Numbered from the stretch's first letter, positions 76-35,219 are shown. The stretch is DNA of 41,288 nucleotides from Terriglobales bacterium (GCA_036391015.1 DASWAR010000161.1:1-41288), one strand, 5' to 3'. The notes: a model not told the origin generated them from the letters alone. Translations and numbers: made by a program.

Positions 76-1617
76 TTACGGCCCGACGCCGCCGGTGTGA
101 CAGTCGGCGCAATTGACGGCGGTCATGTCGCCCAGGTCAACCGGGTGCTTGAACTTCATGCCCTGCGTGCTGCCGTAGACGGGTTGCCCGCTCTCCAGTT
201 CGGCGAGGACGGTATGGCAGGTATCGCAATCCTTGGTCAGCGCCTTGCCGTCGGGGCTGACGTGATTGCCGTCGTGACAGCGGAAACAGCCGGCGAACAT
301 GAAATGCCCGATGTTGTTCGGGTGCACGCGCCAGTCCACCTTCATCTCGGGGAACATGGTGGTCTTGAAAATCCGCTGCACCTCGGCTATGGCGCCGCGA
401 ATTTCCAGCTCCTTGCTCTTGGCTAACGCGGGATATCTCTCGCCATAGAATTTTTCCAGGTTGGTGGCGATGGCCTGGGTTGCTTCCGGCGTGGAATTGT
501 AGCCGGCGCTGAGAACCGCGACTGCCTGCTGCTTGATGAAGGGCAAGGTCGAATCGATCCGTCTGGCAACCAGCGCCTCGTCCACCGAGTGATCGGGCGG
601 GGGATAGATGTGCGAAGGACGGTTGTGGCAGTCGACGCAATCCATGCGCCGCTTGGGCATGCCGGCAAGCTCCTCCGGCTTGACCGGGTTGTCCTTCGAT
701 TGGTAGACGGTGACGCGCCCGCTCTGGTCTTTCACCTGCACCCACGGGATCACCTGGCGCTGCTTGTCGCTGGTGGCATAGGTGATCTCGTTGGCGATGT
801 TCATGTGCCAGTGAATGCCGGTGGGCGCACCGGTGGTGGGATCGCCGCCGCCGGTGTTGATCAGCATGCGGATCTGCCGGGGCGTATTTTTTTCGTCGCT
901 GCCGTAGTGATAGAAGACCTTCAATTGCGCGCCATAGAACTTGCGCGGCCAATGGCACTGCTCGCAGGTTTCCTGCGCCGGGCGCAGGTTCGCGACCGGA
1001 GTGGGAATGGGCTTGGGATACTTGTGGAAGGTGACGGAGTACACCTGGTAGGCGCCGGAGAGCTTGGAGCGGACGTAAAATCCGGCGCCGGGGCCGACGT
1101 GGCAATCCACGCAGCGCACGCGCGCGTGCGGCGACTGGCTGTAGGCGACGAACTCGGGGTTCATGACCGAGTGACAAAGCTGGCCGCAGAACTGGATGGA
1201 GTCGGTGAACTCGTAGGCGCGGTAGCTGCCGGCCGCGCTGAGGGCGACAAAGACGATGGCGAAGCAGACGAAAAACGCGAAGGCGCCGCGCTGCTGCGGA
1301 TCATTGAGATCGATGCGCGGGTAGCGCGCCATGGACGGCGCCTGAGTGCGCCGGCGCGAGCGCTCCGCCCACATGCCCACCGGGATCAGCAGCAGTCCCA
1401 GGATCATAAACGCGGGCAGGATCATGTACGCGAAGATGCCGATGTAAGGACTGGGCCGGGCGGAAATGTAATCAATAAAAATGAGGAATGCGATGTTGGC
1501 CGCGCTGATGACGGCCAACGCCACGCCGACCAGGCTGATCGGGTTCCGGAACAGGCCCGGCGGCGGGTCCTGCGGGGAGGCGGGCGAGGCTACTTCATCG
1601 GGGGGCTGGTCGGCCAT
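76..1617 (-). CDS. Membrane-anchored NapC/NirT-type heptahaem cytochrome c (ImcH-like quinol dehydrogenase candidate)
   Basis: Tracked ORF is 76..1683. AGGAGG sits 8 nt upstream of the ATG at 1617, which favours that start. Three N-terminal hydrophobic helices are followed by CGQLCH (Cx3CH) directly after TM3. Then come six CxxCH motifs: CVDCH, CEQCH, CVDCH, CFRCH, CDTCH, CADCH. The architecture (3 TM plus 7 haem motifs, about 510 aa) matches the published description of Geobacter ImcH. No alignment was run. Confidence 0.8.
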
Positions 1618-1727
1618 CCAAAATCCTCCTGGATTTCCTGTGGCATGCTGCACCGGCTGCGGCTGCGCCGGTGCAAAAAGCAACCGCGCAGCTTACGTCA
1701 AATGTAATCCGCCGACAAACAACGGCC

Positions 1728-1800: not shown

Positions 1801-3825
1801 TCAAGGGCGCGGGCCGACCGGTTGCTTGTCCTCCGACTCTTCCGGCGCCGGCAGCGGCTCGGGCGCGCCGCTCTCCGCCGCCGCGGCATCCACGGCCCGG
1901 CGGACGGTCTCGCTGTCGAGGCCGTGCTCCTCCTGGTAATGCTCCACCGACATCTTCCCGTCGTACCAGGCCCAGTTCATCGGATAGACGTCGGCGTCGT
2001 ACATGACCTGGTAGAAGTGCCAGAACAGAATGGCGAGCGTCGCCAGGATGGCCTCGTAGAAGTGGATGGCGGTGGCGACGTCCAGCCACCACCGGGGAAA
2101 CAAGTGTCCGACCTGCACCTTGAACCACAGCGCCAGGCCGGTGCTGGCCATCACGATGGTTCCCCACAGCAGAGCCCAGTACTCCACCTTCTCGCCGTAG
2201 TTGAAGCGCTTGAACTGCGGTTTGGCCACATTGAGGCCGAGGTAGTGGCGCATGGTGTCGCGCGCATCGAGAGCGTCCTTCGGCTCCGGCAGCATGGCGG
2301 CAAACAGGCGCCGTCCCTCGACGCTGACCATCAGGTACCCGAGATGATACAGGCCCACGGCGATGAGCACGCCTCCGGCGGTACGGTGCAGGATGCCGCG
2401 CAGCGTCTCGTTCAGGTTCAGCATCTCGGCGAACCAGGAGTCCGGATACTTCAGCGCGAAGCCGGTGATCACCAGCACGAAGAAGCTGATCAGCAGCGCC
2501 AGGTGCTGCAGGCGCTGGTTGGTATCCATGCGGCGGACGATGCGGCGATGCGCGTCGCGGCGCAGCACCGCCTTGCGGCGCCAGATAATCAGGTTGTGCA
2601 GCAGCATGGCACCGATGGTGAAGAAAATCAGCGTCAGGTACATGCGGCGGATCCAGCGCACCGCGACGCTGCCGATATCGGCGGAGAGTGGCGCGTCCAC
2701 GTGCACTTTGCCCTGGATAAATTTTTCGGTGACGCCGGGATGGCACTGGCCGCAGGTCTTGATCAGGTTGGCGTGGTTGACGGTTGACTTGGGATCGGAG
2801 GACGGCAGGATGTTGTGCGCGCCGTGGCAGCTGGCGCAATTGGCGACCACCTTGGATCCCGCCTTCGACGCCAGCCCGTGATAGCTCGCCAGGTAGGTGC
2901 TGCCGCGACGGCCCTCGACACCGAACTCGCCCGCCAGGCGCACGCTCTCATGGCAACGCGCGCAGGTGCTGCGCGCCAGGTTGTAGGCGCTCACCGACGA
3001 TGCGGGATCGCTGGGCGCCTTGATGGTGTGAATGCCGTGACAATCGGTGCACACCGGCGCCTGCCAGTTGCCGCGTGTCACCGCCTGCCCGTGAACGCTG
3101 GTGATGTATTCCTGCTCGACCTTTTCATGGCACTTGGCGCAGGTAAAGGGAACGTTGGCCTTGGCAATCGAGGACTTCGGATTGCCGCCGTTCAGGATCT
3201 CGTGCGCGCCGTGGCAATCGGTGCAGACCGCGGCCTTGCTCTTGTCGCCTTCCTTGGTGACCGATTTTCCGTGCACGCTCTCTTCGTAGTTGATGAACGG
3301 CTGCGCGCTGTGGCCGCTGGCCTCCATGACGAACTTCTGGCCGTGGCAGGCGCCGCAGGTGACGGGAATGTTGGAGCGGTGCACCTTCGCCTTCGGATCG
3401 GTGGCGGGCAGGATCTGGTGCACGTTGCCGTGGCAGTCCTGGCAGGAGGCGGCGAGTTTGTCGCCGCTCTTCACTGCTTGCGCGTGGAAGCCGCGGTTGT
3501 AGGCGGCATCCTGGTCGGCATGGCAGGTGGCACACTTGGGCTTGGCGGGCGGCGTGTCGTGCGGCGCCGACTTGATGTCGGTGTGGCAGTCGGTACAGGC
3601 GAACATTCCGTGCACCGAGCCCTTGAACTTCGCCTCCTCCACCGCAAGCGAGACCTGCTTCCCGCCCACTTCCTTGGTCATGCTCGCGTCGGCGTGGCAA
3701 GCGAGGCATTCGGCGCCGGTGATTTTCGGCTGTTTCGGCTGCTTCGCGGCCCACGAAATCGCGCTGAATAAAACGAGCATGAATGCCAGCGCGATCGCAA
3801 TCCGTGTACGGCTCGGTTTCAACAT
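1801..3825 (-). CDS. Undecahaem cytochrome c fused to a C-terminal FdnI/HydC-type cytochrome b membrane domain (CbcL-like)
   Basis: Signal peptide, then 11 CxxCH motifs (CLACH, CTDCH, CATCH, CQDCH, CGACH, CTDCH, CAKCH, CTDCH, CARCH, CASCH, CGQCH), many in the doubled-CxxCH arrangement. The C-terminal ~270 aa contain several TM helices with conserved His residues (HRTAGG, HLGY, IHFYEA). This c::b fusion architecture is what is described for Geobacter CbcL. Confidence 0.85.
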   Translation of the reverse strand: MLKPSRTRIAIALAFMLVLFSAISWAAKQPKQPKITGAECLACHADASMTKEVGGKQVSLAVEEAKFKGSVHGMFACTDCHTDIKSAPHDTPPAKPKCATCHADQDAAYNRGFHAQAVKSGDKLAASCQDCHGNVHQILPATDPKAKVHRSNIPVTCGACHGQKFVMEASGHSAQPFINYEESVHGKSVTKEGDKSKAAVCTDCHGAHEILNGGNPKSSIAKANVPFTCAKCHEKVEQEYITSVHGQAVTRGNWQAPVCTDCHGIHTIKAPSDPASSVSAYNLARSTCARCHESVRLAGEFGVEGRRGSTYLASYHGLASKAGSKVVANCASCHGAHNILPSSDPKSTVNHANLIKTCGQCHPGVTEKFIQGKVHVDAPLSADIGSVAVRWIRRMYLTLIFFTIGAMLLHNLIIWRRKAVLRRDAHRRIVRRMDTNQRLQHLALLISFFVLVITGFALKYPDSWFAEMLNLNETLRGILHRTAGGVLIAVGLYHLGYLMVSVEGRRLFAAMLPEPKDALDARDTMRHYLGLNVAKPQFKRFNYGEKVEYWALLWGTIVMASTGLALWFKVQVGHLFPRWWLDVATAIHFYEAILATLAILFWHFYQVMYDADVYPMNWAWYDGKMSVEHYQEEHGLDSETVRRAVDAAAAESGAPEPLPAPEESEDKQPVGPRP

Positions 3826-3853: not shown

Positions 3854-4807
3854 CTACCGGTACGCGAACAGCATGGCGTAGATGATCCACACCACGATGC
3901 TGAAGCCGATGGACAACGCCACCCACGCGAACACGCGAATGGTCTTCACCACGATGGCCGGTTGCGGATCCGCCAAATGCTGCTCCAGGCGGCCGCTGGC
4001 GACCAGCGCCTGGTACTCACGCGGCTTGTCCCGCTTTAATTCCGCCAGCGGCATGTGCCCGGTGAACACGGTGGTGTCCATGGGAAATTTTTCCGGCCGC
4101 AGGTGGGTGTTGAAGAAATGGACGGTGAAGATGAACCCGGTGGCGAGCAGCGCCTCGTCGCTGTGAATAATGGTGGCGACATTGATGAACGACCCGGGAA
4201 TCACCTGCGTGAAAAACACCGGGAACCACAGCGTCAACCCGGTGGAGCCGATGATGAACACGCCCCAGAACACGGCGAAGTAATCGAATTTTTCCCAGTA
4301 CGTCCAGCGCCCGTACTGCGGCCGCTCGCCCTGCCCCACGAACCACTTCATGGTGCCGACAAACTCCAGCAGGTCCTGCTTCATCGGCAACATCGAGTTC
4401 GGGCCCAGGAGCAACGCCTTCCAAGATCCGTACTCGCGCTTCTTGAGCTTGAATAGGTCAACGATGTGAGTGATAAACGTGGCAAACATGATCACCGCGG
4501 CGGTGCGGTGAATGAAGCCGGCGGTCTGAAATCCGCCCAGCATGCGCGACATAGACCGCGCCCACCCGGTGTAGGAAAACTTCAGCGACAATCCGGTCAG
4601 CGCCAGGGTGATGAAGCTGACGATCATGCAGACATGCAGCGTCCGGTGCAGGTAAGTGAAGCGGACGAACTCGCGACGGTCGGGCGGTGCCTCCGGCCCC
4701 CATTCATCGCTGGCGATGACCAAGGCATGATCGGCGGCGGCGGCCTTCGGCGCCGCGGGATTCGCTTCCGCAACGACGGTGTCGATCGGCTCTTTAACGG
4801 TCGCCAT
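3854..4807 (-). CDS. Stand-alone FdnI/HydC-type cytochrome b membrane subunit
   Basis: 317 aa with multiple TM helices and conserved His residues (HRTLHV, HRTAAV, IHSDEA, HFFNTH). By eye it aligns colinearly with the C-terminal domain of the 674-aa fusion protein. Its start overlaps the stop of the upstream 19-haem gene by 14 nt. Confidence 0.8.
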
Positions 4808-6821
4808 CGTGCTTCTCCTCCCCCGGTTTTTGTTCGGCAGCTTTGCGGGCCGCTTCCTCAGCGCGCAGTTCGCGGCGCATCTGGAAGGCGCGCGGCAACC
4901 ACAACAACGTGTGCACGCCGCCGACGACGAACGTCCCCAGCAGCAGCGAAGTCATGCCCCAGAACGTCCAGAACAGGAACGGGTACTTCTTGGGATCGTG
5001 GTGGGTGGCGTGCGTCAGGTATCCGGCGAAGCGCCGCGTCGCGCTGGCGTGGCATTTCTGGCAGGTCTGCACGACGTTGGCGCGGCTGAGGTGGGAGCGC
5101 GGATCGGTGACCTTCAGGATGTCGTGCGCGCCGTGGCAGTCGTAGCACTTGGCGGTCTTGGTGTAGCCGAGCCGCGAAACTTTGCCGTGATACGTATCGA
5201 AGTAAGTCTTCGCAATCTCGACGTGGCAGCGGCCGCACTTGGCCATGATGTCGAGCTTGAAGCCGTCCTCGTCGGCGCGCCGGATCTGGTGCGCAGTGTG
5301 GCAGTCGTTGCACACCGGCAGCTCTTCCTTGGTGCTGGAAACGGTCCGCGAGTGAATGCTGTTGACGAACTGCTCCTGAATGCCGTGGTGGCACTGGCCG
5401 CAGGTCGCCGGGAGGTTTTTGGGATTCACTGTGGATTCCGGATCCGACTTGGGCAGTTCGCGGTGCGCGCTGTGGCAGTTGGTGCAGGTCGCCGTCACCG
5501 TCAGGCCGCTCTTCAGCAGGCCCTTGCCGTGAATGCTCTCCTGGTAGTGCTGGATGATCTCGTGCTGCGTGCCGGTGTAGCGCATCGCAGCCTTCTTGCC
5601 TTCGCGGTGGCAGCGCGCGCACAGCGTGGGGATATTGGTGGCGAAGGTCACCGATTGTGGGTCGTGCTTGCCGAGCACGCGATGCGTGCCGTGACACTCC
5701 TTGCAGACGGGCGCGTTGGGGTCCTTCTTGGCGAAGAGCTGGCCGTGCTTGCTGCGCTGGTAGTCCTGCCCGATCTGCTCGTGGCACTTGGAGCAGTCCA
5801 CCGCCGTGACGATGGTCTCGCAGGGGCGCACACGCGAGGCGTTCACTTCCGAGTGGCACTGGCTGCAGGCCACCTTGGCATGACGGGACGACGCCACCTC
5901 CTCAACGTGCACTCCCAACGGCCGCCCATCGCGCGCTTTCAGGTTCTCGTCGGCGTGGCAACGCATGCAGTCCGCGTCGGCCATGCCCTGGGTGTAGAAG
6001 ACCTTCCGCACCTTGTGCGGCTGGTGGCAATCGACGCACGCCGGCAGCACGTGCGCCTCTTTCTCCCAAAGCGCGCCTTTGATCGTTTTGCGGTGGACAT
6101 CCTCGATGCGCGCATGGCACTTGGTGCAGGTCTTGGCGATGTTGGCCCGCGCGATCGAGGAGCCTGGATCGGTGTGCGGCAGGATGTTATGCGCCGTGTG
6201 GCAGGAGGCGCAGTTTGCCGTCACCGTCAGGCCTTTCTTCAGCAGGGCCTCGCCATGCATGCTCTCGGCATAATTCTCGATGATGTTGTGCTGCTCGATC
6301 TTCCGCTGCGTCTGTACCGGCGTGCCTTCACGATGGCATTTGCCGCAGGTGAACGGCACGTTCATCGGCGACACGGGAGAGCGCGGGTCCTTGACGGGCA
6401 GGATGTCGTGATTGCCGTGGCAACTGGTGCAGCGCGGCGCCAGAGGGTCACCGTGGGCGACGGCGCGGCCGTGCAGCGACTTGGCGTGCTGCTTGGCCTC
6501 CTCGCCGTGGCAGGTGCCGCAGTCCACTCTCTTCAGCGGCGTTTCGTGCGGCAGGTCCTTGCCCTCGAGATCGGCGTGGCAGTTAGTGCAGGACAGCGAT
6601 CCGTGGATGGATGACGAGAACTTCTTCGCCTCGACAAACAGCGAAACCGTGCGCCCGGCGCGCTTGGTGGTGAGCGTCCTGTCGGCGTGGCAAGCCAGGC
6701 AGGTGTCGTTGGGTTTGTCCTCGGCCCGGGCGGCGCCGCCGGCGAGCAGCAGGAACGCGGTGAACAGCAGCAGCGCTAACAGGATTTGCGTCCGGGCCGT
6801 GGTGCGTCGGGATACGGTCAT
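4794..6821 (-). CDS. 19-haem cytochrome c with signal peptide and C-terminal TM anchor
   Basis: 19 CxxCH motifs counted in the translation. Repeated doubled-CxxCH modules of the form C..CH..H.I...DP.S....N....C..CH. A C-terminal hydrophobic helix (FLFWTFWGMTSLLLGTFVVGGV). The ATG at 6821 begins a typical signal peptide (MTVSRRTTARTQILLALLLFTAFLLLAGGAARA). The tracked ORF extends to 6869. Confidence 0.88.
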   Translation of the reverse strand: MTVSRRTTARTQILLALLLFTAFLLLAGGAARAEDKPNDTCLACHADRTLTTKRAGRTVSLFVEAKKFSSSIHGSLSCTNCHADLEGKDLPHETPLKRVDCGTCHGEEAKQHAKSLHGRAVAHGDPLAPRCTSCHGNHDILPVKDPRSPVSPMNVPFTCGKCHREGTPVQTQRKIEQHNIIENYAESMHGEALLKKGLTVTANCASCHTAHNILPHTDPGSSIARANIAKTCTKCHARIEDVHRKTIKGALWEKEAHVLPACVDCHQPHKVRKVFYTQGMADADCMRCHADENLKARDGRPLGVHVEEVASSRHAKVACSQCHSEVNASRVRPCETIVTAVDCSKCHEQIGQDYQRSKHGQLFAKKDPNAPVCKECHGTHRVLGKHDPQSVTFATNIPTLCARCHREGKKAAMRYTGTQHEIIQHYQESIHGKGLLKSGLTVTATCTNCHSAHRELPKSDPESTVNPKNLPATCGQCHHGIQEQFVNSIHSRTVSSTKEELPVCNDCHTAHQIRRADEDGFKLDIMAKCGRCHVEIAKTYFDTYHGKVSRLGYTKTAKCYDCHGAHDILKVTDPRSHLSRANVVQTCQKCHASATRRFAGYLTHATHHDPKKYPFLFWTFWGMTSLLLGTFVVGGVHTLLWLPRAFQMRRELRAEEAARKAAEQKPGEEKHDGDR

Positions 6822-6860
6822 CCAGTACCTGCTCAGCGTGCCGTGGTAACCCCAGTACTG

Positions 6861-6874
6861 GTGACACACGTCAC
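6861..6874. promoter_or_regulatory. CRP/FNR-type palindrome GTGA-N6-TCAC (site 1)
   Basis: gtgaCACACGtcac. Its centre is about 46 nt upstream of the ATG at 6821. Confidence 0.6.
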
Positions 6875-6920
6875 GCAGGCGGGGTCATTCCTACGTTCTC
6901 AGATCGGCGACCAACCGGCT

Positions 6921-6934
6921 GTGAGTCGCCTCAC
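6921..6934. promoter_or_regulatory. CRP/FNR-type palindrome GTGA-N6-TCAC (site 2)
   Basis: t-gtgaGTCGCCtcac-g, i.e. TGTGA-N6-TCACg. Confidence 0.6.
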
Positions 6935-6942
6935 GTCTGAAG

Positions 6943-6956
6943 GTGACTGTAATCAC
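6943..6956. promoter_or_regulatory. CRP/FNR-type palindrome GTGA-N6-TCAC (site 3)
   Basis: g-gtgaCTGTAAtcac-c. Its centre is 22 bp from site 2. Confidence 0.6.
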
Positions 6957-6982
6957 CCCGGCTGTGGTTATCACCTGACGAC

Positions 6983-6996
6983 GTGAGCTCCATCAC
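6983..6996. promoter_or_regulatory. CRP/FNR-type palindrome GTGA-N6-TCAC (site 4)
   Basis: c-gtgaGCTCCAtcac-c. Its centre is 40 bp from site 3. Confidence 0.6.
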
Positions 6997-7104
6997 CTGG
7001 GCAAGCGGCCCCCGCCGCGATCGGACGCGTCATGATGAATCGGCTCAAGGATGGGCCATGCGGGGCAAAAAATGAGGGCGGCACAATTCGCCACGCTCCC
7101 CTCG

Positions 7105-7134
7105 GGCAAACAAAACGCCCGCCGAAGCGGGCGT
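7105..7134 (-). terminator. Rho-independent terminator after the truncated Crp/Fnr paralogue
   Basis: Minus strand reads aacgcccgc-uucg-gcgggcguu followed by UUUGUUUG. It starts about 20 nt after the stop at 7157. Confidence 0.8.
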
Positions 7135-7156
7135 TGTTAGGACGGCGATGATCTCC

Positions 7157-7675
7157 TCAGTTGCTGTGCGCGGCAGCGTGCGAGGCAGGGTGCACCAGGT
7201 GGGGCCGGCGCGCGCGCGCTAGTCCGATCGACCGCACTCGGTCATAGGCCTGATGCAGGTCCTGGCTGAGCAAGTGAACCACCTGCAGGCAGGCCACGCG
7301 GTGTTCGCGCAGGAAGTGCAGAAGGTCCTTGCGGCGGACGAAAGCCACCTGCGAAGTGTCCAGCATTTCCGCGGTCACTTCGTAGGGCCGGCCCGCCATG
7401 CTGGCGCTCAGGCCCAGCACCTCGCCCGGCCCGGCAACGCGCAGCATCAGGCGCTTGCGCACGTCGGAACAGACCGAGAGCTTGGCGCGCCCTTCGCACA
7501 AGACATAAATTCCCCGCGGCTGTTTGCCTTCGGCGAACAATGTCGCTCCGCGCGGCACGCTCGTGGTGGTCTTAATGGCGTCGAATGCCTGTAGCGCTTC
7601 GGCCGGCAAATCACAGAAAACCCGGTCCGGCCGCAGCTCGCAGGTAAAGCAGCTCTGGTGCTTGGCGCTTTCCAT
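7157..7675 (-). CDS. Crp/Fnr-family paralogue with cNMP-binding (effector) domain and dimerisation helix but no helix-turn-helix
   Basis: Aligns by eye with the neighbouring 253-aa regulator from SCFTCELR... to ...RVRSIGL. It then diverges and stops about 20 aa later. The ATG at 7675 (MESAKHQSCFTC) is preferred by homology. The tracked ORF starts at a GTG at 7726, inside a palindrome. Confidence 0.7.
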   Translation of the reverse strand: MESAKHQSCFTCELRPDRVFCDLPAEALQAFDAIKTTTSVPRGATLFAEGKQPRGIYVLCEGRAKLSVCSDVRKRLMLRVAGPGEVLGLSASMAGRPYEVTAEMLDTSQVAFVRRKDLLHFLREHRVACLQVVHLLSQDLHQAYDRVRSIGLARARRPHLVHPASHAAAHSN

Positions 7676-7710
7676 GACACTGGAATGATGCTTGCCGCGG
7701 GGAACCAAGA

Positions 7711-7728
7711 CAGTGACTGCTATCACTG
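7711..7728. promoter_or_regulatory. CRP/FNR-type palindrome CAGTGA-N6-TCACTG (site 5)
   Basis: cagtgaCTGCTAtcactg with perfect 6-bp arms. Its centre is about 44 nt upstream of the ATG at 7675, the same geometry as site 1. Confidence 0.6.
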
Positions 7729-7850
7729 TTTGTAGTGATGCATAACCGAAAAATCAAAGCTCGGAGCGGGCTTCGGCAGGAAATACAAGGAGCTTTCTCC
7801 GCCGCACCCGTCATGGCGCAGCGAAGTTCCGGCGAAGACTTGAGACGTCC

Positions 7851-8612
7851 CTAGACGCTGGCCAGGGCTTTCAACGCCGCCTTGTTGCGGATCAGCAACG
7901 TCGAACCCTTGGCGTGCACGATCTGCCGCTTCTTCAATTCGGCGAACAGACGCGTGACCGTCTCGCGCGAGGTCCCGATCATCTGCGCGATCTCCTCGTG
8001 GGTGAGCGCCATCTTCACGCGCGGCTCCTGCTTGTTGGCTTCCCCGTTCCTCGAGCTCCACTCCAGCAGCAGCTTGGCGAGCTTTTCCGCCGCCGAGTGT
8101 GAAAGCCCCAGCGAGCGGATCTCGTGGCAAGCGGTGTTGTACTTCTCGCTCAATTGCTCGGCCACGCGGAAGCAGGCCTCGCTGTGCTCGCGCAGGAAAC
8201 GCAGAAAATCTTCGCGCTTGACGAAGTTGACCTGGCAGGGATCGATCGTCTCCGCCGTGAGTTCGTACGGTTTGCCGGAAACGGTGGCGCTGAGCCCGAG
8301 CACTTCGCCGGGTTCGGCGATTTTCAGGATCAAGGTTTTTCCGTCGGTGGAACAGATGGAGAGCTTCACCCGCCCTTTGCAGAGGACAAAAATTCCGCGG
8401 GGCGCCTGGCCTTCCACGAACAACACTGCGCCCTTGGGATAAGCACTGGCGTACTTAATAGCTTCGAATGATTGCAGGGCGGCAGTGGGCAAATCGCAGA
8501 ATATCCGGTCGGCCCGGAGCTTACAGGTGAAGCAGCTTTCTATGATATCGAGTCCATAAGGTGATAACACGACACAACCCCCTGTGACATTCCATCTTAC
8601 CCTTCCGGTCAA
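7851..8612 (-). CDS. Crp/Fnr-family transcriptional regulator (full length, with N-terminal Cys triad)
   Basis: cNMP-binding beta-roll (FVEGQAPRGIFVLCKGRVKL...GEVLGL). C-terminal HTH reads THEEIAQMIGTSRETVTRLF; its RETVxR matches the E. coli CRP recognition helix RETVGR. N-terminal motif is C-x2-C-x8-C (CFTCKLRADRIFC). The tracked start at 8612 is TTG. A GTG at 8570 preceded by GGGGG is a plausible alternative. Confidence 0.88.
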   Translation of the reverse strand: MTGRVRWNVTGGCVVLSPYGLDIIESCFTCKLRADRIFCDLPTAALQSFEAIKYASAYPKGAVLFVEGQAPRGIFVLCKGRVKLSICSTDGKTLILKIAEPGEVLGLSATVSGKPYELTAETIDPCQVNFVKREDFLRFLREHSEACFRVAEQLSEKYNTACHEIRSLGLSHSAAEKLAKLLLEWSSRNGEANKQEPRVKMALTHEEIAQMIGTSRETVTRLFAELKKRQIVHAKGSTLLIRNKAALKALASV

Positions 8613-8623
8613 GAAAAAACTTT

Positions 8624-8657
8624 CGAACGGTCGTTAGGCGCTCCGAACGGACGTTCG
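8624..8657. promoter_or_regulatory. Two copies of an AACG-N2-CGTT palindrome in the divergent crp-like/PEBP promoter region
   Basis: cgAACGgtCGTT at 8624-8635 and cgAACGgaCGTTcg at 8644-8657. The second has perfect 6-bp arms. Spacing is 20 bp. Confidence 0.3.
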
Positions 8658-8764
8658 TGCGCGCCCGCGGAAACCAGCATGGACACGGGGTTTCCGCCGT
8701 TTCCCGTGGCGCCCTCCGCACCCACTTGGCAACCCGCTCCGGCTTCTGATGAAATGGCAGGGGT

Positions 8765-9376
8765 ATGTGGCGAATGTCGCTCCTGATTGTGACCTTGCTC
8801 ACCGCATCGGTGTACATGCAGACCGCGGCAGAAGCGCATGGAATCTGGGGTTCCGGCGGTTTCGCTCATCTCAGGGCCGGTCTTTACGCGACAAATTACG
8901 CCGCGCATACGGAGGGAGCCATGCAGGTCAACAGTAAATTGATTTCCCCCGGCGGCGAATTCCCGAAACGGGAAACATGCGACGGCCAGAATACTTCCCC
9001 GCAACTGGCCTGGAGCGGCGCCCCGCCGACTACGAAGTCTTTTGCCTTGATCCTCGACGATCCTGACGCTCCGGGCGGTACCTTTACTCATTGGATGGTG
9101 TGGAACATTCCCGCCGGCACGCATGAGTTGCCGGAGAACCTGCCGAAGACCGCGGAATGGGCGGACGGCGCCCGCCAGGGCCGCAACGATTTCGGCAAGG
9201 TCGGTTACGGCGGACCGTGCCCTCCGCCGGGAAGACCGCACCGCTATTACTTCCGTTTATATGCGCTCGACAACGCACCCGCCGTCAAACCAGGCGCGGG
9301 CCGCGAGGAACTCGAGCGCGCCCTGCAAGGGCATATTCTTGCCCGCGGCGAACTGATGGGGCGCTACGCCCGTTGA
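8765..9376 (+). CDS. YbhB/YbcL-family phosphatidylethanolamine-binding protein (PEBP/Raf kinase inhibitor-like)
   Basis: Family-typical motifs: NTSPQLAWSGAPPTTKSFALILDDPDAP, THWMVWNIP, GRNDFGKVGYGGPCPPPGRPHRYYFRLYALD. The N-terminus is hydrophobic and signal-like. Confidence 0.88.
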   Translation: MWRMSLLIVTLLTASVYMQTAAEAHGIWGSGGFAHLRAGLYATNYAAHTEGAMQVNSKLISPGGEFPKRETCDGQNTSPQLAWSGAPPTTKSFALILDDPDAPGGTFTHWMVWNIPAGTHELPENLPKTAEWADGARQGRNDFGKVGYGGPCPPPGRPHRYYFRLYALDNAPAVKPGAGREELERALQGHILARGELMGRYAR

Positions 9377-19445: not shown

Positions 19446-19856
19446 TCAGACATTGGCTTTCTGATGGCACTCGGTGCACTTGGTCGGAGCTTTCTTGCCC
19501 TTGGCGTTTTCCGCCGTGTGGCAATCGATGCAGGTGCCCTTCTTAGCCGTGGCATCGTGGAATGCCAGTTTGAAAGTGGTCTTCATCGGGGCCGCGGCCG
19601 CCTTAACGTGGCACTCGCTGCAAGCCTGCGTCTTGCCGGTGGCAGCTTTCTCCGGTTTGGACGCATGGTGGCAGGTCTCGCACTTGATGTTGCGGTCCTT
19701 GACGTGAGCCGAATGCATGAACTTCACGCCGCCCATGGGATTGCCCTTGAGGATGACCGTATCAGGCGCTGGCTTGTCTGCGGCAAAAGCGGGACCGCAC
19801 ATGACAAATAGCAGGGCGAGGCCCAACAGAACAGCAAACAGTTTGGAAATCTTCAC
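19446..19856 (-). CDS. Periplasmic tetrahaem cytochrome c3 (class III)
   Basis: Signal peptide plus four CxxCH motifs (CETCH, CSECH, CIDCH, CTECH) in about 110 mature residues. GTG start preceded by GAGGAGG. Confidence 0.88.
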   Translation of the reverse strand: MKISKLFAVLLGLALLFVMCGPAFAADKPAPDTVILKGNPMGGVKFMHSAHVKDRNIKCETCHHASKPEKAATGKTQACSECHVKAAAAPMKTTFKLAFHDATAKKGTCIDCHTAENAKGKKAPTKCTECHQKANV

Positions 19857-19960
19857 GTCGCCTCCTCGCGAGATGAACGACAGAACAATTACTGCGGGGC
19901 GGATTATAAATGCGGGAGGAAGGCAATTTCAGTAAGGAAAGCAGGGCGTCACGCGCATGC

Positions 19961-19974
19961 GTGATGTGCGTCAC
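19961..19974. promoter_or_regulatory. CRP/FNR-type palindrome GTGA-N6-TCAC (site 6) upstream of cytochrome c3
   Basis: c-gtgaTGTGCGtcac-g with perfect 5-bp arms. Its centre is about 111 nt upstream of the start. An extra everted half-site TCACGC-gcat-GCGTGA lies immediately upstream (19949-19964). Confidence 0.55.
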
Positions 19975-20102: not shown

Positions 20103-20459
20103 TTAGTAGCCGCGGCCGTAGCCACCGCCGCCGCCGCCGCGTCCGCCGCTGCCGCCACCGCGTCCACCACGACCGCCGCCGCCACCACCACCAGCACCAC
20201 CAGCGCCGCGTTCCGGCTTGGGACGGGCTTCGCTGACGTTCAAGTTGCGTCCGCCGACGCTGCTGCCGTTAATACCGGCGACGGCTTTCTCGGCTTCGGC
20301 GTCATTGGTCATCTCGACGAAGGCGAAGCCGCGGGGCTGTCCGGTGTCGCGGTCGCGAATCATGTTGACGCGCTCGACCGTACCGTAGCCCTCGAAGAGC
20401 GTGCGCAGCTCTTCCTCGCTGGTCCTGAAATCAAGGTTGCCCACGTAAATGTTCTTCAT
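20103..20459 (-). CDS. RRM-type RNA-binding protein with Gly/Arg-rich C-terminal tail
   Basis: RNP2 motif IYVGNL, RNP1 motif RGFAFVEM, then GGAGGGGGGGRGGRGGGSGGRGGGGGGYGRGY. The ATG at 20459 is preferred; the tracked ORF extends spuriously to 20870. Confidence 0.88.
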   Translation of the reverse strand: MKNIYVGNLDFRTSEEELRTLFEGYGTVERVNMIRDRDTGQPRGFAFVEMTNDAEAEKAVAGINGSSVGGRNLNVSEARPKPERGAGGAGGGGGGGRGGRGGGSGGRGGGGGGYGRGY

Positions 20460-20697
20460 ATTGTCCTCGCGGTTGAGGTCTGTTGATTGGGGGCTTGCTC
20501 GGAAGCAGCGAAGGCAGTGCCGAGTGCGGCTCGCGATCTCTAGACCGAAATAGCGGTACTTCGCCCTCTGCGGGCGGAACAAGACTACCATTTCAACGGC
20601 TTCCGCGCCGGTTCGGGCAAAACTTTTTCGCGAGCCGGCAGTGCCATTTTGGTTATTAGAACGTTCGCCATACGCGCCCTGTGCTAGCCTCGACCTG

Positions 20698-21453: not shown

Positions 21454-21573
21454 TTAGCTGCGGTTGAGATCGTCGATGTCGTCGCGCAGGCGCTGGTAGC
21501 CGCGGGTGAGGATTACCAGGTAAACGATGTGAATCGCCCAAGCGGCGCCGTAGGCGGCGTAAACCCACTTCAT
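21454..21573 (-). CDS. ccmD: Haem exporter protein CcmD
   Basis: 39-aa single-TM peptide MKWVYAAYGAAWAIHIVYLVILTRGYQRL.... ATGA start/stop overlap with ccmC. Confidence 0.75.
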   Translation of the reverse strand: MKWVYAAYGAAWAIHIVYLVILTRGYQRLRDDIDDLNRS

Positions 21574-22268
21574 CGCGATGCCCCTTTCGCGCCGGCAATG
21601 GCCTTCATGGCGTGCGCTTCTTCCACCTGCTGGCGCAGGCGTTCGAGGCGGTACCGAAGCCAGATCACCAGAAATGCGAGCGCCAGGAATCCGCACCAGT
21701 TGATCAGCAGGGCGTGCATCATGCGGGGATCAATGCCGGAGCCTTGGCCGCCGCCGATGACCGGCTGCGGATGCTGTGTGCGGAACCAACGGATCGCCAT
21801 ATAAACGAACGCCACGTCCACGGCGCCGAAGACGGCGAGCACGGAGGCCAGCATCGGATTCTGGCCGGCGGTGGAGTAGCGCCGCAGCAGCAGATAGCTG
21901 ACGTAGATGAGCCAGAGGACGAGCGTGGAGGTGAGGCGCGCGTCCCAGGTCCACCAGATACCCCAGATCGGCTTCGCCCAAATCGGCCCGGTAACCAGCA
22001 CGACGGTGCAAAAGACGACGCCGACTTCGGCGGTGGTGAGCGCGACGGCATCGGCCTTCGAGTCACCCGAGGCGAGATACCAGATGGAAGCGACCAGGTT
22101 GGCGAAGAAGCACAGGAACGCCGTCCAGGCCGAGGGCACGTGGTAGTAGAAAATCCGCTGCGCGTCGCCCATGGTCATTTCCCTGGGAGCGACGATGATC
22201 GCCTGGTAAAGGCCGTAGGAGAGCAGCGCGAGCGTGATGAGGGCGAGGATGGAGAAGGTCGATTTCAT
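21570..22268 (-). CDS. ccmC: Haem exporter/lyase subunit CcmC
   Basis: WWD motif (WGIWWTWDARLTS), multiple TM helices, about 232 aa. ATGA overlap with ccmB. The tracked ORF extends to 22514. Confidence 0.88.
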   Translation of the reverse strand: MKSTFSILALITLALLSYGLYQAIIVAPREMTMGDAQRIFYYHVPSAWTAFLCFFANLVASIWYLASGDSKADAVALTTAEVGVVFCTVVLVTGPIWAKPIWGIWWTWDARLTSTLVLWLIYVSYLLLRRYSTAGQNPMLASVLAVFGAVDVAFVYMAIRWFRTQHPQPVIGGGQGSGIDPRMMHALLINWCGFLALAFLVIWLRYRLERLRQQVEEAHAMKAIAGAKGASR

Positions 22269-22978
22269 TCCGCGTGCAAGACCGTGTCGAAGAGAAGATA
22301 TCCGATGATGGTGAACACTATATCGTACACGGCGAGAAAGACGAGCGGGAGATAGGGAGAGTTGTCGCCGGTAAGGATGGCGGTGGTTCCCGCAACCATG
22401 GCCAGCAGCGCGGGAATCGAGATGGGGAACAGCAGCAGCGGGAGCATGACTTCGCGGCTGCGGGTGCGGATGGACATGGCGGCGAAAAACGTGCCGTTGA
22501 CCACCAGGGCCCATGTGCCCAGGATAGAGGCGATGGCGAGTTGATAGGCGGGACCAACGCTGCGCAGGTTGTAGAAGACGACGAACAGCGGCGTCATCAG
22601 GGCTTCCAGGATGATGACGAAGAGGAAATTACCGATGGCTTTGGCAAGAAAAAGCGATTCGGCGGGCGCTGGCGAGACGCGGTAGGCATCGAGCGCCTGA
22701 TTGCGCAGCTCGCGCGCCCAGGTCTGATTAAGGGCAACCACCGCGGCGAACAGCAGCGCCACCCACACCAGACCGCCGGCAATGCGGCGCGATTCTTCGG
22801 CGGTGAGGTCGAAGGAGAAGCTGAAGATCACCACCACCAGCAGAGCGAAAAACAGCATGGAGTTGATGGCGTCCTTGGAGCGCCACTCCAGGCGCATGTC
22901 TTTGGCGAGGGTGACGCGCAAAATATCCAAGAACGCGGGAGGCTGCGCGCGGATGGGCGCGACGGCAGAGGCGCTCAT
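22265..22978 (-). CDS. ccmB: Haem exporter permease CcmB
   Basis: 237-aa polytopic membrane protein in the ccmB position. LEWRSKD and FSF..DL segments are typical of the family. Confidence 0.8.
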   Translation of the reverse strand: MSASAVAPIRAQPPAFLDILRVTLAKDMRLEWRSKDAINSMLFFALLVVVIFSFSFDLTAEESRRIAGGLVWVALLFAAVVALNQTWARELRNQALDAYRVSPAPAESLFLAKAIGNFLFVIILEALMTPLFVVFYNLRSVGPAYQLAIASILGTWALVVNGTFFAAMSIRTRSREVMLPLLLFPISIPALLAMVAGTTAILTGDNSPYLPLVFLAVYDIVFTIIGYLLFDTVLHAE

Positions 22979-23502
22979 CGCGGCACCGCCGAATTTGTAT
23001 TCGCCGGCTCGCCTCGCGAACTGAAGCGCGGTATCCAGCGAGGCACGGTGCGGCAGTATTCCTCGTAGGAGGCGCCGAATTTGCGGCGGAGGTCAGGCTC
23101 CTCCAGGTACACGACGCCGAGGTGGACAACCACGATCCACGCCCCGGCGAAGACGAGGACCGACGGGGAGCGCAAATACAGCGCGAACGCCGCCAGCAGG
23201 GCGAGACCACCGATGTACATGGGATTGCGTACGAACCGGTACGGCCCGACGGCGACCACCCGGCGGGGAGCGTCGAAAGGCGCCGGAGTCCCGCTTCCGC
23301 GAACCACGAAAAAGCCGATGCAGACCAACTCGACCGCCAGCGCGGGGACAGCGATGCTCCACCCGAGGGTGGGGCACCACGCGGGTAGTGATCGCCCGGC
23401 GCGCACGTCCATCCGGCTCACGTAGAGCGCCAGCCAGCCCCACAGCAGGACGAAGGAGGAGGCAAAAAACAGCGCGCGCAACGCAGTGAAGATGGTACTC
23501 AT
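22975..23502 (-). CDS. ICMT/PEMT-family integral-membrane carboxyl methyltransferase-like protein (copy 2)
   Basis: Four to five TM helices. C-terminal signature VRNPMYIGG...YLEEPDLRRKFGASYEEYCRTVPRWIP follows the RHPxYxG...EE..L...FG..Y..Y...V pattern of isoprenylcysteine carboxyl methyltransferase-like enzymes. ATGA overlaps at both ends. Confidence 0.8.
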   Translation of the reverse strand: MSTIFTALRALFFASSFVLLWGWLALYVSRMDVRAGRSLPAWCPTLGWSIAVPALAVELVCIGFFVVRGSGTPAPFDAPRRVVAVGPYRFVRNPMYIGGLALLAAFALYLRSPSVLVFAGAWIVVVHLGVVYLEEPDLRRKFGASYEEYCRTVPRWIPRFSSRGEPANTNSAVPR

Positions 23503-24026
23503 CGCGGCACCGCCGAATTCGTTTCCGCGGGTTTCCGGCGCGAACTGAAGCGCGGTATCCAGCGAGGCACGGTGCGGCAGTAAGTTTCATACGCTGCGCC
23601 GAATTTTGTCCGCAGAGTGGGTTCCTCGTAGACGAGGACGAAAACGTGGGCCAACAGCAGCCACGGCAGACAGAAGATAAACGCCGCACCGGAGCGGAGG
23701 TAGAGCGCGAATCCGGCGAGCAGGAGCGCGCCGCCGATATACATCGGATTGCGGACGCAACGGTAGGGCCCGACGGCGACGAATTGGCGGGGCGGATCAA
23801 ACGGCGCGGGCGTGCCGCGGCCGATGACAACGAACGTGGCAATGCAGGCCACGCAGATGACCGAGCCAGCGAGCATCACGGGGATGGCCAGGATGCCCGT
23901 CCACTCCGGTAGTTGCAGGTTGTACAGGCTGTCGTAGCGCCGCAGGCCCAGCGCGACCCACGCCCAGAGCCACAGGAAAGCGACCATCACAATCAGCGCA
24001 CGGACGGCGATGAAGGCTGTCTTCAC
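23499..24026 (-). CDS. ICMT/PEMT-family integral-membrane carboxyl methyltransferase-like protein (copy 1)
   Basis: Paralogue of 22975-23502, also 175 aa, with VRNPMYIGG...VYEEPTLRTKFGAAYETYCRTVPRWIP. ATGA overlaps with ccmA and with copy 2. Confidence 0.8.
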   Translation of the reverse strand: MKTAFIAVRALIVMVAFLWLWAWVALGLRRYDSLYNLQLPEWTGILAIPVMLAGSVICVACIATFVVIGRGTPAPFDPPRQFVAVGPYRCVRNPMYIGGALLLAGFALYLRSGAAFIFCLPWLLLAHVFVLVYEEPTLRTKFGAAYETYCRTVPRWIPRFSSRRKPAETNSAVPR

Positions 24027-24730
24027 GACGCCCCCCGAGGCTGAAGTTCGCGGCGTGCGCGGTCGCGGGCAACAATCTGGCCGGCGTTCATGGTGACCGA
24101 CTCGTCGGCGACGCCGTCCAGCAGCGCCGGCTGGTGCGTGACGACGAAGACAGTCTTGCCCGCGTCACGCATTTCGCCGAGGAGGCGGACCATCTCGCGC
24201 GCGGAAGCGATGTCCACGTTGGAAAAAGGCTCGTCGAGAAGAACAATGGCCGGGTCGTTGAGAATGGCGCGGGCGAGCGAAAGGCGCTGCCGCATGCCCT
24301 GGGAATACTGCCCGACGCGGCGCGGGAGATCGGGATCGAGACCGACGGCGCGCATCACCTCGGAGCAATGCTGGCCGCCGCGGATGCCGTAGAGACGGGC
24401 GAAATAGCGGAGGTTTTCCATGCCGTCCATTTCGTCGTAGAGCAGCGGCGCGTGCGCCATGTAACCGATTTCGGCGGCGACGGAACGCAGGTCCGGCGAA
24501 CCCAGCACGGTGACCGCGCCGCGGGAGGGACGCATCAGCCCGGCAATGGCGCGCAGCAGCGTGGACTTCCCTGCTCCGTTGTCGCCGAGCACGAGATAGA
24601 GGCGGCCGGGGGCGAACTCGGCGGTCACGCCGCGCAGGGCGGCGAAGCGGCCGAACAGTTTCGTGACCTCGGTGAGGACGATGGCGGGCGCGGGTTGGGG
24701 ATCGGTGGACGTTTGTTGCGAAAGACTCAC
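24023..24730 (-). CDS. ccmA: Haem exporter ABC ATPase CcmA
   Basis: Walker A GDNGAGKST, signature YSQGMRQRLSLA, Walker B IVLLDEPF. A GTG at 24730 forms a GTGA overlap with the ccmE stop. The tracked ORF start at 24856 lies inside ccmE. Confidence 0.85.
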   Translation of the reverse strand: MSLSQQTSTDPQPAPAIVLTEVTKLFGRFAALRGVTAEFAPGRLYLVLGDNGAGKSTLLRAIAGLMRPSRGAVTVLGSPDLRSVAAEIGYMAHAPLLYDEMDGMENLRYFARLYGIRGGQHCSEVMRAVGLDPDLPRRVGQYSQGMRQRLSLARAILNDPAIVLLDEPFSNVDIASAREMVRLLGEMRDAGKTVFVVTHQPALLDGVADESVTMNAGQIVARDRARRELQPRGAS

Positions 24731-25233
24731 TGCGCAAGACCGGCGGTGGTGGCGGTTCCGGCCTGGGCTTTCTGCAGCGGCTTGGCCGGCGCGCTGGTAG
24801 GCTGCGACCCGGGCGTGCCGGGTTGATCGGGCGCGGGCGCGTACTTGGAAGCGCACTTGGCCTGGAGCTGGTTGGCGTGGAAGACGCCGTCGCGGCCAAA
24901 GCGGCCCTCGGCCATGGCCTGCGAGTCGTCCCTAAAAGTATCCGGCGGGGCCTCGGTCCCGGTGTAAACCACGGGAAGGGTGAGTTCGTTTTCCTTGAGC
25001 GCGAATTCGACGCGCGAGCCCTGGCGCCTGATGGAGCCGGGCACGACGTTGCCGGCGACGCGCAGCCGCTTGGCATAGCGGCTGTCGTTCATGTCGCGCA
25101 GTTCCTTGATGGTGACGTAGTAGCTCTTGCTCTGCTGCACGCCGGTAAAGGCCAGGTAACCCAGGGAGACGATGACAACGGCGATGGCAACGCCGAAACG
25201 GATATACGTCAACCGACTTTTCATCTCAAGCAT
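24727..25233 (-). CDS. ccmE: Haem chaperone CcmE, CxxxY variant
   Basis: N-terminal TM anchor and an OB-fold region (RLRVAGNVVPGSI...VVYTGTEAPPDTFRDDSQAMAEGRF). The haem-binding segment reads LQAKCASKY where canonical CcmE has LAKHDENY. Start is 25233 or 25224. Confidence 0.85.
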   Translation of the reverse strand: MLEMKSRLTYIRFGVAIAVVIVSLGYLAFTGVQQSKSYYVTIKELRDMNDSRYAKRLRVAGNVVPGSIRRQGSRVEFALKENELTLPVVYTGTEAPPDTFRDDSQAMAEGRFGRDGVFHANQLQAKCASKYAPAPDQPGTPGSQPTSAPAKPLQKAQAGTATTAGLAQ

Positions 25234-34784: not shown

Positions 34785-35219
34785 ATGGTCGGCGGCCAAT
34801 GGCCGCGCGGAACCAGCCCCGCAGGGGCGGCAGTTCACAGCCTGGGGCGTAAGCCCCGGGTAGATCGCAAGAAAACGAACAGGGTCCCGCAGGGACGACA
34901 CGAACAAAGATTGTTCCTGACCAGAAAAATAATTCGCGCGCTCAACAACCGGCTTCTCGGCGGCCCGGATGAATTCCGCCGCGAAGCTCAACACGCGCGC
35001 AAGCAGATCGCTAAGTGGCGTCACCGCCGTCCGAAGCGCCGGCTAACGGCGCGTGTGGTGCAGGACGCGCTGATTGAAACCTGGAACCAGTTACACGGGT
35101 TCAAGGAATGGCGCAAGGTGGAGGTTGATCTCGCCGTCGTAGCTGATCGCATCACGCGCCGCTCGCACCGCATGCGCTCGCGAAAATCGCAAGCGAGGCC
35201 CCGCTTTGGGTGGTTTTGA
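34785..35219 (+). CDS. Doubtful ORF in the fadN-fadA spacer (basic hypothetical protein)
   Basis: The 3' two-thirds have GC3-rich codons. The 5' third is a REP-like hairpin cluster. There is no homology evidence and no clear Shine-Dalgarno sequence. Confidence 0.2.
   Translation: MVGGQWPRGTSPAGAAVHSLGRKPRVDRKKTNRVPQGRHEQRLFLTRKIIRALNNRLLGGPDEFRREAQHARKQIAKWRHRRPKRRLTARVVQDALIETWNQLHGFKEWRKVEVDLAVVADRITRRSHRMRSRKSQARPRFGWF
34816..34896. repeat. REP-like cluster of three short hairpins
   Basis: gcccc-gca-ggggc (34816-34828), cctggggc-gtaa-gccccggg (34841-34860) and gtccc-gca-gggac (34884-34896). Confidence 0.5.

Follow-up and report, generated by a model that had tools for sequence, protein, structure and literature searches.

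Tandem GTGA-N6-TCAC palindromes as putative operators of a CRP/FNR-family regulator upstream of multihaem cytochrome genes in Terriglobales

The DNA analysed in this work is a 41,288-bp stretch from a Terriglobales bacterium (GCA_036391015.1 DASWAR010000161.1:1-41288; hereafter the window), in which GTGA-N6-TCAC palindromes cluster upstream of a multihaem cytochrome operon and close to a gene for a CRP/FNR-family regulator. Among the closest described systems, Escherichia coli fnr is autorepressed, in NtcA-activated promoters about 22 nt separate a palindrome from the TAN3T -10 box downstream of it and there is no -35 element, and in Shewanella oneidensis a CRP-box regulator, not a TTGAT-box FNR, governs the multihaem (Mtr) cytochromes for anaerobic and extracellular electron transfer. 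CbcL- and ImcH-like cytochromes are of the kind used by Geobacter to respire minerals. The cluster cysteines of Bacillus Fnr are C-terminal. Fnr of Bacillus and Paenibacillus is oxygen-responsive and uses a CRP-type TGTGA-N6-TCACA box (bioRxiv 10.1101/2020.01.03.894683), and homologues of ImcH and CbcL have already been reported in Acidobacteria (PMC6295460). No literature on the present motif, regulator or regulon in Acidobacteria, including the regulation of ImcH and CbcL, was found.

The palindromes are best read as operators of the adjacent regulator, which would act as a class II activator and as an anaerobic switch for respiratory electron-transfer genes (probability about 0.8). From site statistics, conservation, gene associations and features of the protein we infer binding, activation, transcription starts and the signal. 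An earlier note on the window had proposed CRP/FNR-type operators of the adjacent regulator that define a respiratory regulon, and this proposal is supported by the linkage of motif and regulator, the intergenic bias of the sites and the conservation of a site ahead of a cytochrome c3 gene. The regulator and a paralogue lacking the DNA-binding helix-turn-helix (HTH) are encoded as follows.

7851-8570, minus strand: full-length CRP/FNR-family regulator, with N-terminal CxxCx8C plus C64 and recognition helix SRETVTR
7157-7675, minus strand: paralogue of the regulator without a DNA-binding domain, 172 amino acids (aa), Pfam match to cNMP_binding only

Distribution and spacing of the palindromes

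Nine exact GTGA-N6-TCAC matches were found in the window by pattern search (starting at 6861, 6921, 6943, 6983, 7713, 8789, 17608, 19961 and 36464), compared with 0.50 +/- 0.70 per window in dinucleotide-preserving shuffles, 0 of 100 of which reached nine. Six of these had been listed in the earlier note: the cluster of four at 6861, 6921, 6943 and 6983, recovered both by the search and by reading the sequence, with the same spacings of 60, 22 and 40 bp, and the sites at 7713 and 19961, both of which are present. The sites at 8789, 17608 and 36464 were absent from it. Its statement that the cluster goes beyond chance agrees with the shuffles, and its view that the spacings approximate whole helical turns holds for 22 bp (2.1 turns) and fails for 40 bp (3.8) and 60 bp (5.7). 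A one-mismatch pair placed at 1728/1750 exists, one base away, at 1729/1751.

The comparison covered 80 genome loci around orthologues of the regulator in Terriglobales (Acidobacteriota; L001-L080, 1.47 Mb in total), with genes called by a simple GC3-based open reading frame (ORF) picker; because all 80 loci are related, conservation among them is partly shared ancestry. Together with the window (1.5 Mb) they contain 493 exact sites (0.33/kb), against 10-22 matches for the same half-sites with N4, N5, N7 or N8 spacers, 10-48 for permuted palindromes and 10, the background level, for TTGA-N6-TCAA. Overall the motif is 25-50 times commoner in these genomes than control palindromes. In 80 unrelated metagenome loci the motif occurred at 0.02/kb. 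Site density in the related loci was 1.51/kb in intergenic DNA, 0.12/kb in all called ORFs and 0.038/kb deep within long ORFs, a roughly 40-fold contrast between the first and the last, unlike the similar density regardless of gene context that the earlier note had named as evidence against its reading. In each of the 80 related genomes the motif accompanies the regulator and occupies set positions ahead of the same genes, within a conserved order of regulator, HTH-less paralogue and multihaem cytochrome genes; the half-sites are exact across genomes and the spacers and flanks vary freely.

That the palindromes are chance matches, a product of base composition, a mobile repeat or RNA/DNA hairpins is hardly credible. 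Such an account could draw on the GC-rich genome and on two of the nine exact matches that look accidental, but it is contradicted by the shuffle and spacer-control counts and by half-sites that stay exact while their spacers and flanks change, the four-base arms are too short for stable hairpins, and no Rfam family matched the long leader and intergenic region. The two accidental-looking matches were rejected as regulon sites: 17608 is located in a gene for a luciferase-like monooxygenase and is missing from the close relatives L002, L003 and L007, and 36464 falls on the start of a PD-(D/E)XK gene within a beta-oxidation operon. Both are probably chance matches, as neither has the 22-bp partner half-site seen at every conserved site.

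Exact sites in the loci and the window share the core GTGAY-N4-RTCAC, in which position 5 favours C or T and the outer T/A is weakly kept (36%); the inverted GTGA/TCAC half-sites, the 6-bp spacer and the enrichment in promoters are those of a CRP-type operator. Neighbouring sites are predominantly 22 bp apart to the base (67 pairs), and for 53% of exact sites at least the inner half-site of another palindrome is found at precisely this distance, other offsets lying at 1% or less almost throughout, with the exceptions of 23 bp and of 40-49 bp (the latter being other site spacings). Six such composites are present in the window (6921/6943, 6961/6983, 7713/7735, 8767/8789, 19939/19961 and 1729/1751; 3 or fewer mismatches in 16 positions), against 0.07 in shuffles, and the pair scan returned a composite partner at every conserved window site except the lone 6861 site. 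On sequence grounds, two palindromes with this 22-bp spacing form a single working unit of 36 bp, and such a composite implies that two dimers sit next to each other. Each dimer would contact its own palindrome by way of the CRP-type recognition helix (R-E-x-x-x-R).

Promoter layout and downstream genes

All four clustered sites lie in the 330-bp region between the paralogue gene and the cytochrome operon. Their arrangement is given below, with predicted site centres relative to the putative transcription start.

6983-6996: operator GTGAGCTCCATCAC, exact, centre about -103.5, same spacing in the closest relatives (L001-L003)
6961-6974: degenerate partner at 22 bp from the 6983 site, reduced to the inner half-site TCAC, centre about -81.5
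6943-6956: operator GTGACTGTAATCAC, exact, distal member of the core pair, centre about -63.5, pair conserved in L001-L007
6921-6934: operator GTGAGTCGCCTCAC, exact, promoter-proximal member, centre about -41.5 (class II position), -10-like hexamer 23 nt downstream
6893-6898, minus strand: -10-like hexamer GAACGT (nAnnnT), from anchored alignment and offset statistics, conserved in L001-L007
6861-6874: lone operator GTGACACACGTCAC in the 5' leader, exact, without a 22-bp partner, centre about +18.5

Transcription from this promoter would start near 6886. The proximal dimer, near -41.5, is proposed to give class II activation, with the second dimer at -63.5 and a second, weaker composite further upstream (-81.5 and -103.5); the inverted repeat near 6961/6983 is the same TCAC-N8-GTGA junction of the composite pair. 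The 6861 site lies 60-61 bp from the -41.5 site throughout L001-L007 and downstream of the putative start, where its role is likely damping or repressing, so that it would probably limit expression. A second promoter downstream of 6861 was considered and rejected, no -10-like hexamer being present where one would be expected, either in the window or in L006. Consensus scanning found no canonical sigma-70 promoter in 6700-8900, and the promoter positions consequently rest on weak -10-like hexamers.

The operon downstream of this promoter comprises the following genes.

4794-6821, minus strand: secreted multihaem cytochrome c, first gene of the operon, 19 CxxCH motifs and a signal peptide, Pfam matches Cytochrome_C7, Cytochrom_c3_2 and MtrC/MtrF-like
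3854-4807, minus strand: membrane cytochrome b (Ni_hydr_CYTB/FdnI-like), by domain match
1801-3825, minus strand: CbcL-like fusion of a periplasmic 11-haem cytochrome c and a cytochrome b561/FdnI-like membrane domain
76-1683, minus strand: ImcH-like multihaem cytochrome of the NapC/NirT family, 6 CxxCH motifs and 1 variant motif

The domain architecture and haem counts of the last two genes fit two inner-membrane, quinone-linked cytochromes: CbcL, in which a multihaem c domain is joined to a cytochrome b of the FdnI/HydC type, and ImcH, which has a NapC/NirT-type region with about seven haems. They are named CbcL-like and ImcH-like on architecture, and CbcL-like orthologues in 66 loci have the motif upstream. 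Spacing between the paralogue gene and the operon varies among genomes, and a group II intron reverse transcriptase-like gene in L003 (15796-17103), which lies between the two, is part of that variation.

Further sites in the window precede the ImcH-like gene, the paralogue gene, the regulator and a cytochrome c3 gene.

1751-1764: one-mismatch site GTGACCTGGACCAC, distal member of an internal pair before the ImcH-like gene, about -63.5
1729-1742: one-mismatch site GTGGCGCAAGTCAC, proximal member before the ImcH-like gene, about -41.5
7713-7726: operator GTGACTGCTATCAC before the HTH-less partner gene, about -41.5, half-site partner at 7735-7748
8789-8802: operator GTGACCTTGCTCAC, about 220-230 bp upstream of the regulator, two-mismatch partner at 8767-8780
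19961-19974: operator GTGATGTGCGTCAC before the cytochrome c3 gene, about -71.5, partner half-site at 19939-19952
19446-19856, minus strand: small secreted tetrahaem cytochrome c3/c7-like gene, regulon member

The ImcH-like gene appears to have its own internal promoter of the same design as the main one, with a -10-like hexamer TACATT at 1701-1706; the same weakened outer half-sites of the 1729/1751 pair are conserved in L002. The corresponding hexamer of the partner gene in the window is CATCAT (7685-7690). The 8789 site overlaps the start of a divergent PEBP gene and is conserved in L001-L008 with a varying spacer, being kept even where the PEBP gene is absent, and this conservation marks it as a real site; no hexamer was found at offset 23 from the 8789 composite in either direction (PEBP gene or regulator). 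The 19961 site, which precedes the tetrahaem cytochrome c3 gene by about 105 bp, keeps its position in eight closer orthologous loci (L081-L088), mostly as GTGA-N6-GCAC, the window promoter here being a scan-detected CTGAAA-18-TATAAT (19932-19903). More distant cytochrome c3 orthologues have the site at the -41.5 offset, ahead of TATACT.

Just upstream of the regulator, two GAACG-N2-CGTTC palindromes (GAACGGTCGTTa and GAACGGACGTTC; 8624-8657) lie about 20 bp apart and are conserved in L001-L012 beside a conserved TTGACC...TAAGAT stretch. This pair looks like a candidate operator for a regulator other than the CRP/FNR one.

For promoter geometry across genomes, promoters were anchored on the site nearest the gene and searched for the -10-like pattern nAnnnT (mostly TAnnnT), which starts 23 nt (20%) or 24 nt (11%) past the proximal site, most other offsets being at about 1-7%. 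The hexamers of individual promoter classes were as follows.

ahbD promoter: TATCGT, at offset 23 in 78%
hoxE promoter: TAGTCT, at offset 23 in 100%
ferredoxin promoter: TAGGGT, at offset 23 in 100%
malic enzyme promoter: varied hexamer, at offset 23 in 67%
dmsE-like promoter: varied hexamer, at offset 24 in 80%
cbcL-like promoter: AACAAT, present

The gap of 22-23 nt between proximal site and hexamer is thus constant in several independent promoter classes, and this conserved distance to the -10-like hexamer places the proximal site at a predicted -41.5 (class II) and its partner at about -63.5. Best conserved is the paralogue promoter, in which all 75 loci where the paralogue ORF was recovered show an exact site, 22 nt, TATCAA or TATCAC, about 6 nt and ATG. 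With the ATG about 6 nt past the hexamer and no Shine-Dalgarno sequence, the paralogue mRNA probably has no leader, or almost none, in most lineages; in a minority of loci the leader is longer and contains AGGAG. The regulator promoter in 41 loci consists of an exact site, a one-mismatch site at +22, 22 nt, GACACT or CACACT, 6-7 nt and a third exact site, a layout that implies activation together with an operator over the putative start. In most related genomes the regulator would thereby also control its own gene.

An adjacent regulator that binds these sites and mainly represses, by promoter occlusion or by loops between sites, would explain the 6861 site within the leader, the presence of a third site over the putative start in the promoter of the regulator itself, the overlap of 8789 with the PEBP start codon and the failure of the consensus scan to find a good -35 or -10. 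Repression as the main mode is nevertheless improbable given the fixed 22-23 nt from the proximal site to a TAnnnT-like hexamer in several unrelated promoters and the core promoters without a -35-like element in the sigma-70 scan, a weak CTGAAA preceding the cytochrome c3 TATAAT. A fixed hexamer distance and a missing -35 are the signature of activator-dependent class II promoters (FNR, NtcA).

Class II activation by the adjacent regulator would, in the window, extend to the operon of 19-haem cytochrome, cytochrome b, CbcL-like and ImcH-like genes, to cytochrome c3 and to the HTH-less partner. Across the related loci, the genes downstream of sites were clustered, giving the targets below.

Regulator or its paralogue: 76 loci
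CbcL-like or large multihaem cytochrome: 66 loci
TonB-like gene divergent from the regulator: 40 loci
AhbD-type radical-SAM haem b synthase: 32 loci
DmsE-family decahaem cytochrome: 10 loci
HoxE (bidirectional hydrogenase): 10 loci
Malic enzyme: 7 loci
Ferredoxin: 6 loci
HypC, HypD and HypF: 2, 2 and 1 loci

The regulator and its partner

Proteins sharing 87-99% identity with the regulator occur in hundreds of metagenome-assembled genomes of Terriglobales (Acidobacteriota), which places the window in an uncultured member of that order. The regulator matches PF00027 (cNMP_binding), PF13545 (HTH_Crp_2) and PF00325 in Pfam, all above cut-offs, which gives it the domains of the superfamily, and its AlphaFold2 model (pLDDT 87.9; 65-75 in the N-terminal 30 residues) shows the CRP fold of barrel, long dimerisation helix and winged HTH, with TM-scores of about 0.8 to GlxR, MtbCRP, Clr and Aliivibrio fischeri FNR. 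The CRP-like RETVxR helix reported by the earlier note is present as SRETVTR and aligns with the RETV recognition helix of CRP, GlxR and MtbCRP; R202, E203 and R207 are 94-98% conserved among 100 family representatives (39-68% identity). In an alignment with E. coli FNR, an Arg of the regulator replaces FNR Val208, and this replacement fits GTGA rather than TTGA (G, not T, at the first base of the half-site).

The cAMP-binding Arg-Ser/Thr (E. coli R82/S83) is replaced by Tyr102-Glu103, the family having Tyr or His and Glu, and this departs from CRP proper. Scores lay below every cut-off of the NCBIfam equivalogs CRP, Fnr, FnrL, FtrB, FixK and NtcA (CRP, 72 against a cut-off of 266; Fnr, 47.7 against 228). 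Its helix, R-E-T-V-T-R, is not the E-x-x-S-R of FNR proper, which goes with the TTGAT-N4-ATCAA box, and its C-terminus (...NKAALKALASV) is free of the cysteines that form the Bacillus-type cluster. By these features the regulator is assigned to the CRP/FNR superfamily as neither a cAMP-CRP nor a canonical FNR.

The dominant cysteines of the family are C13, C16, C25 and C64, which are the sole cysteines in many members; about 60 of 101 sequences have C64 along with all three N-terminal ones. The ligands of E. coli FNR (Cys20, Cys23, Cys29 and Cys122) may not be those of this protein: the N-terminal CxxCx8C is spaced differently, and an equivalent of Cys122 aligns, but family conservation points to C64. 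The conserved four-cysteine set and the missing cAMP-binding arginine suggest that the regulator is probably a redox or oxygen sensor with a Cys4 metal or iron-sulfur centre, and the nature of the target genes likewise points to an oxygen or redox signal. Sensed through such a centre, the oxygen or redox state would turn the anaerobic switch on.

The gene at 7157-7675, described in the earlier note as a truncated regulator, is instead a maintained partner without a helix-turn-helix. Its product is 160-180 aa long in 76 of 78 loci and retains the sensor barrel, the long helix and the four cysteines (99-100% conserved), and an exact -41.5-type site precedes it in all loci in which its ORF was recovered; length, cysteines and site together argue for a maintained gene under the regulator's control. 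A terminator follows it at 7107-7135. As a speculation, and the most economical hypothesis, the paralogue may provide negative feedback through inactive heterodimers. Inactive heterodimers are formed by the HTH-less LuxR homologue CerN (PMC11655674), and no precedent for an HTH-less antagonist within the CRP/FNR family was found in the literature.

Several observations weigh against the proposed role of the adjacent regulator. The equivalent of the FNR ligand Cys122 (C112 in family numbering, in IDPCQV) is present here and in 48% of the family; the regulator promoter in the window lacks the autoregulatory layout of most relatives, its clade keeping only the distal 8767/8789 composite; the -10-like hexamers GAACGT and CATCAT are weak and the sigma-70 scan of the main region was empty; and these genomes hold further CRP/FNR paralogues (a second one in L012, L161 and L163) that could share the motif.

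The last of these bears on the possibility that the operators are real and are read by another CRP-family protein, such as a cAMP-binding CRP, the adjacent regulator having some other specificity. Additional Crp/Fnr genes do occur in some related loci and the GTGA-N6-TCAC core is common to many CRP-type proteins, Bacillus and Paenibacillus Fnr included, yet a different reader is quite improbable. In practically all loci the motif immediately precedes both the regulator and its paralogue, the recognition helix of the family is almost invariant and of the GTGA-reading type, and the motif follows distant family members into different neighbourhoods. These distant members (48-54% identity) have other neighbours (Usp, HSP20, GroEL and cytochrome genes) and are again ringed by the motif, with seven sites in 12.7 kb and six sites in 10.7 kb.

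At two distant regulator-family loci, L161 (sites at 2055, 7792, 7971, 9120 and 10354) and L163 (2157, 4597 and 6667), the motif precedes genes for a universal stress protein, HSP20 and GroEL and a second Crp/Fnr gene, targets that resemble the hypoxia or dormancy regulons of other bacteria.

With the adjacent regulator as the preferred reader of the sites, a fuller picture can be offered tentatively, and its parts holding jointly is doubtful: two dimers would read the 36-bp composite cooperatively, the regulator would represent a new Cys4 subclass, the co-regulated paralogue, made from an mRNA with little or no leader, would cap the output through heterodimers unable to bind DNA, and the whole would serve as a master anaerobic switch for cytochromes of the extracellular electron transfer type, oxygen-independent haem synthesis and hydrogenase across dominant soil Terriglobales.

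Wider context and comparison with known systems

The Terriglobales rank with the most abundant bacteria in soil, and work on gene regulation has covered few of them. The 14-bp palindrome, the 22-bp tandem rule and the -41.5 rule together make a testable regulatory code, which ties a near-universally conserved regulator to CbcL/ImcH-like cytochromes, oxygen-independent haem synthesis and hydrogenase. The code suggests that many of these soil bacteria have a regulated anaerobic or metal-respiring mode and that a low-oxygen regulon may be predictable from metagenomes alone; the HTH-less partner is a possible new control layer for the CRP/FNR family.

Other features of the window were recorded as follows.

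20103-20500, minus strand: bacterial protein with an RRM (RNA recognition motif) domain, ending in a long glycine-rich tail at the C-terminus and encoded immediately upstream of the cytochrome c3 promoter region
21570-24856, minus strand: CcmA-, CcmB- and CcmC-like cytochrome c maturation genes, split by two tandem PEMT-like methyltransferase genes, with no GTGA-N6-TCAC site ahead of the cluster
34815-34860, minus strand: Rfam Acido-Lenti-1 RNA (RF01687), 50.2 bits against a gathering score of 37, inside a 144-aa ORF (34785-35219, plus strand) that has no Pfam match and may be spurious
36458-36886, plus strand: PD-(D/E)XK nuclease-family (PDDEXK_3) gene within a beta-oxidation cluster, flanked by the genes for thiolase and acyl-CoA dehydrogenase, possibly inserted, with the exact GTGA-N6-TCAC on its start codon probably due to chance

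With E. coli FNR the present system shares the fold, an N-terminal cysteine motif, anaerobic respiratory targets, a proximal site at a predicted -41.5 and, in most relatives, an operator over the regulator's own start. It differs in its box (GTGA-N6-TCAC here, TTGAT-N4-ATCAA in E. coli), in its helix (R-E-T-V-T-R here, V-E-T-I-S-R in E. coli), in its cysteines (CxxCx8C plus the conserved C64 here, with Cys122 as fourth ligand in E. coli) and in the strict 22-bp tandem sites. The cAMP receptor proteins (E. coli CRP, Corynebacterium GlxR and Mycobacterium tuberculosis CRP) are the best matches in both sequence and structure and have the RETV helix and the GTGA-N6-TCAC core in common with the regulator, which differs from them by Tyr-Glu in place of Arg-Ser/Thr, by the Cys4 set and by the weak flanking T/A of TGTGA...TCACA (36%). 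Compared with Bacillus Fnr, the cysteines here are N-terminal plus C64, and phylum, targets and tandem operator differ.

Cyanobacterial NtcA, which is among the structural and sequence matches of the regulator, has a similar promoter geometry, whereas it reads GTA-N8-TAC, senses 2-oxoglutarate and usually acts at single sites. Shewanella CRP is cAMP-dependent, and the regulator here lacks the cAMP-binding residues. The CerN/CerM and TrlR/TraR pairs resemble the present arrangement in that a sensor-only paralogue is encoded beside or with the full-length regulator; they belong to the LuxR family, whereas the acidobacterial paralogue belongs to CRP/FNR and its antagonism is only a hypothesis. 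Against this background the unusual traits of the locus are the strict 22-bp tandem, the Cys4 set and the conserved HTH-less partner, and its mechanism would be that of a class II activator in the style of FNR, ANR and NtcA, working on a CRP-type box.

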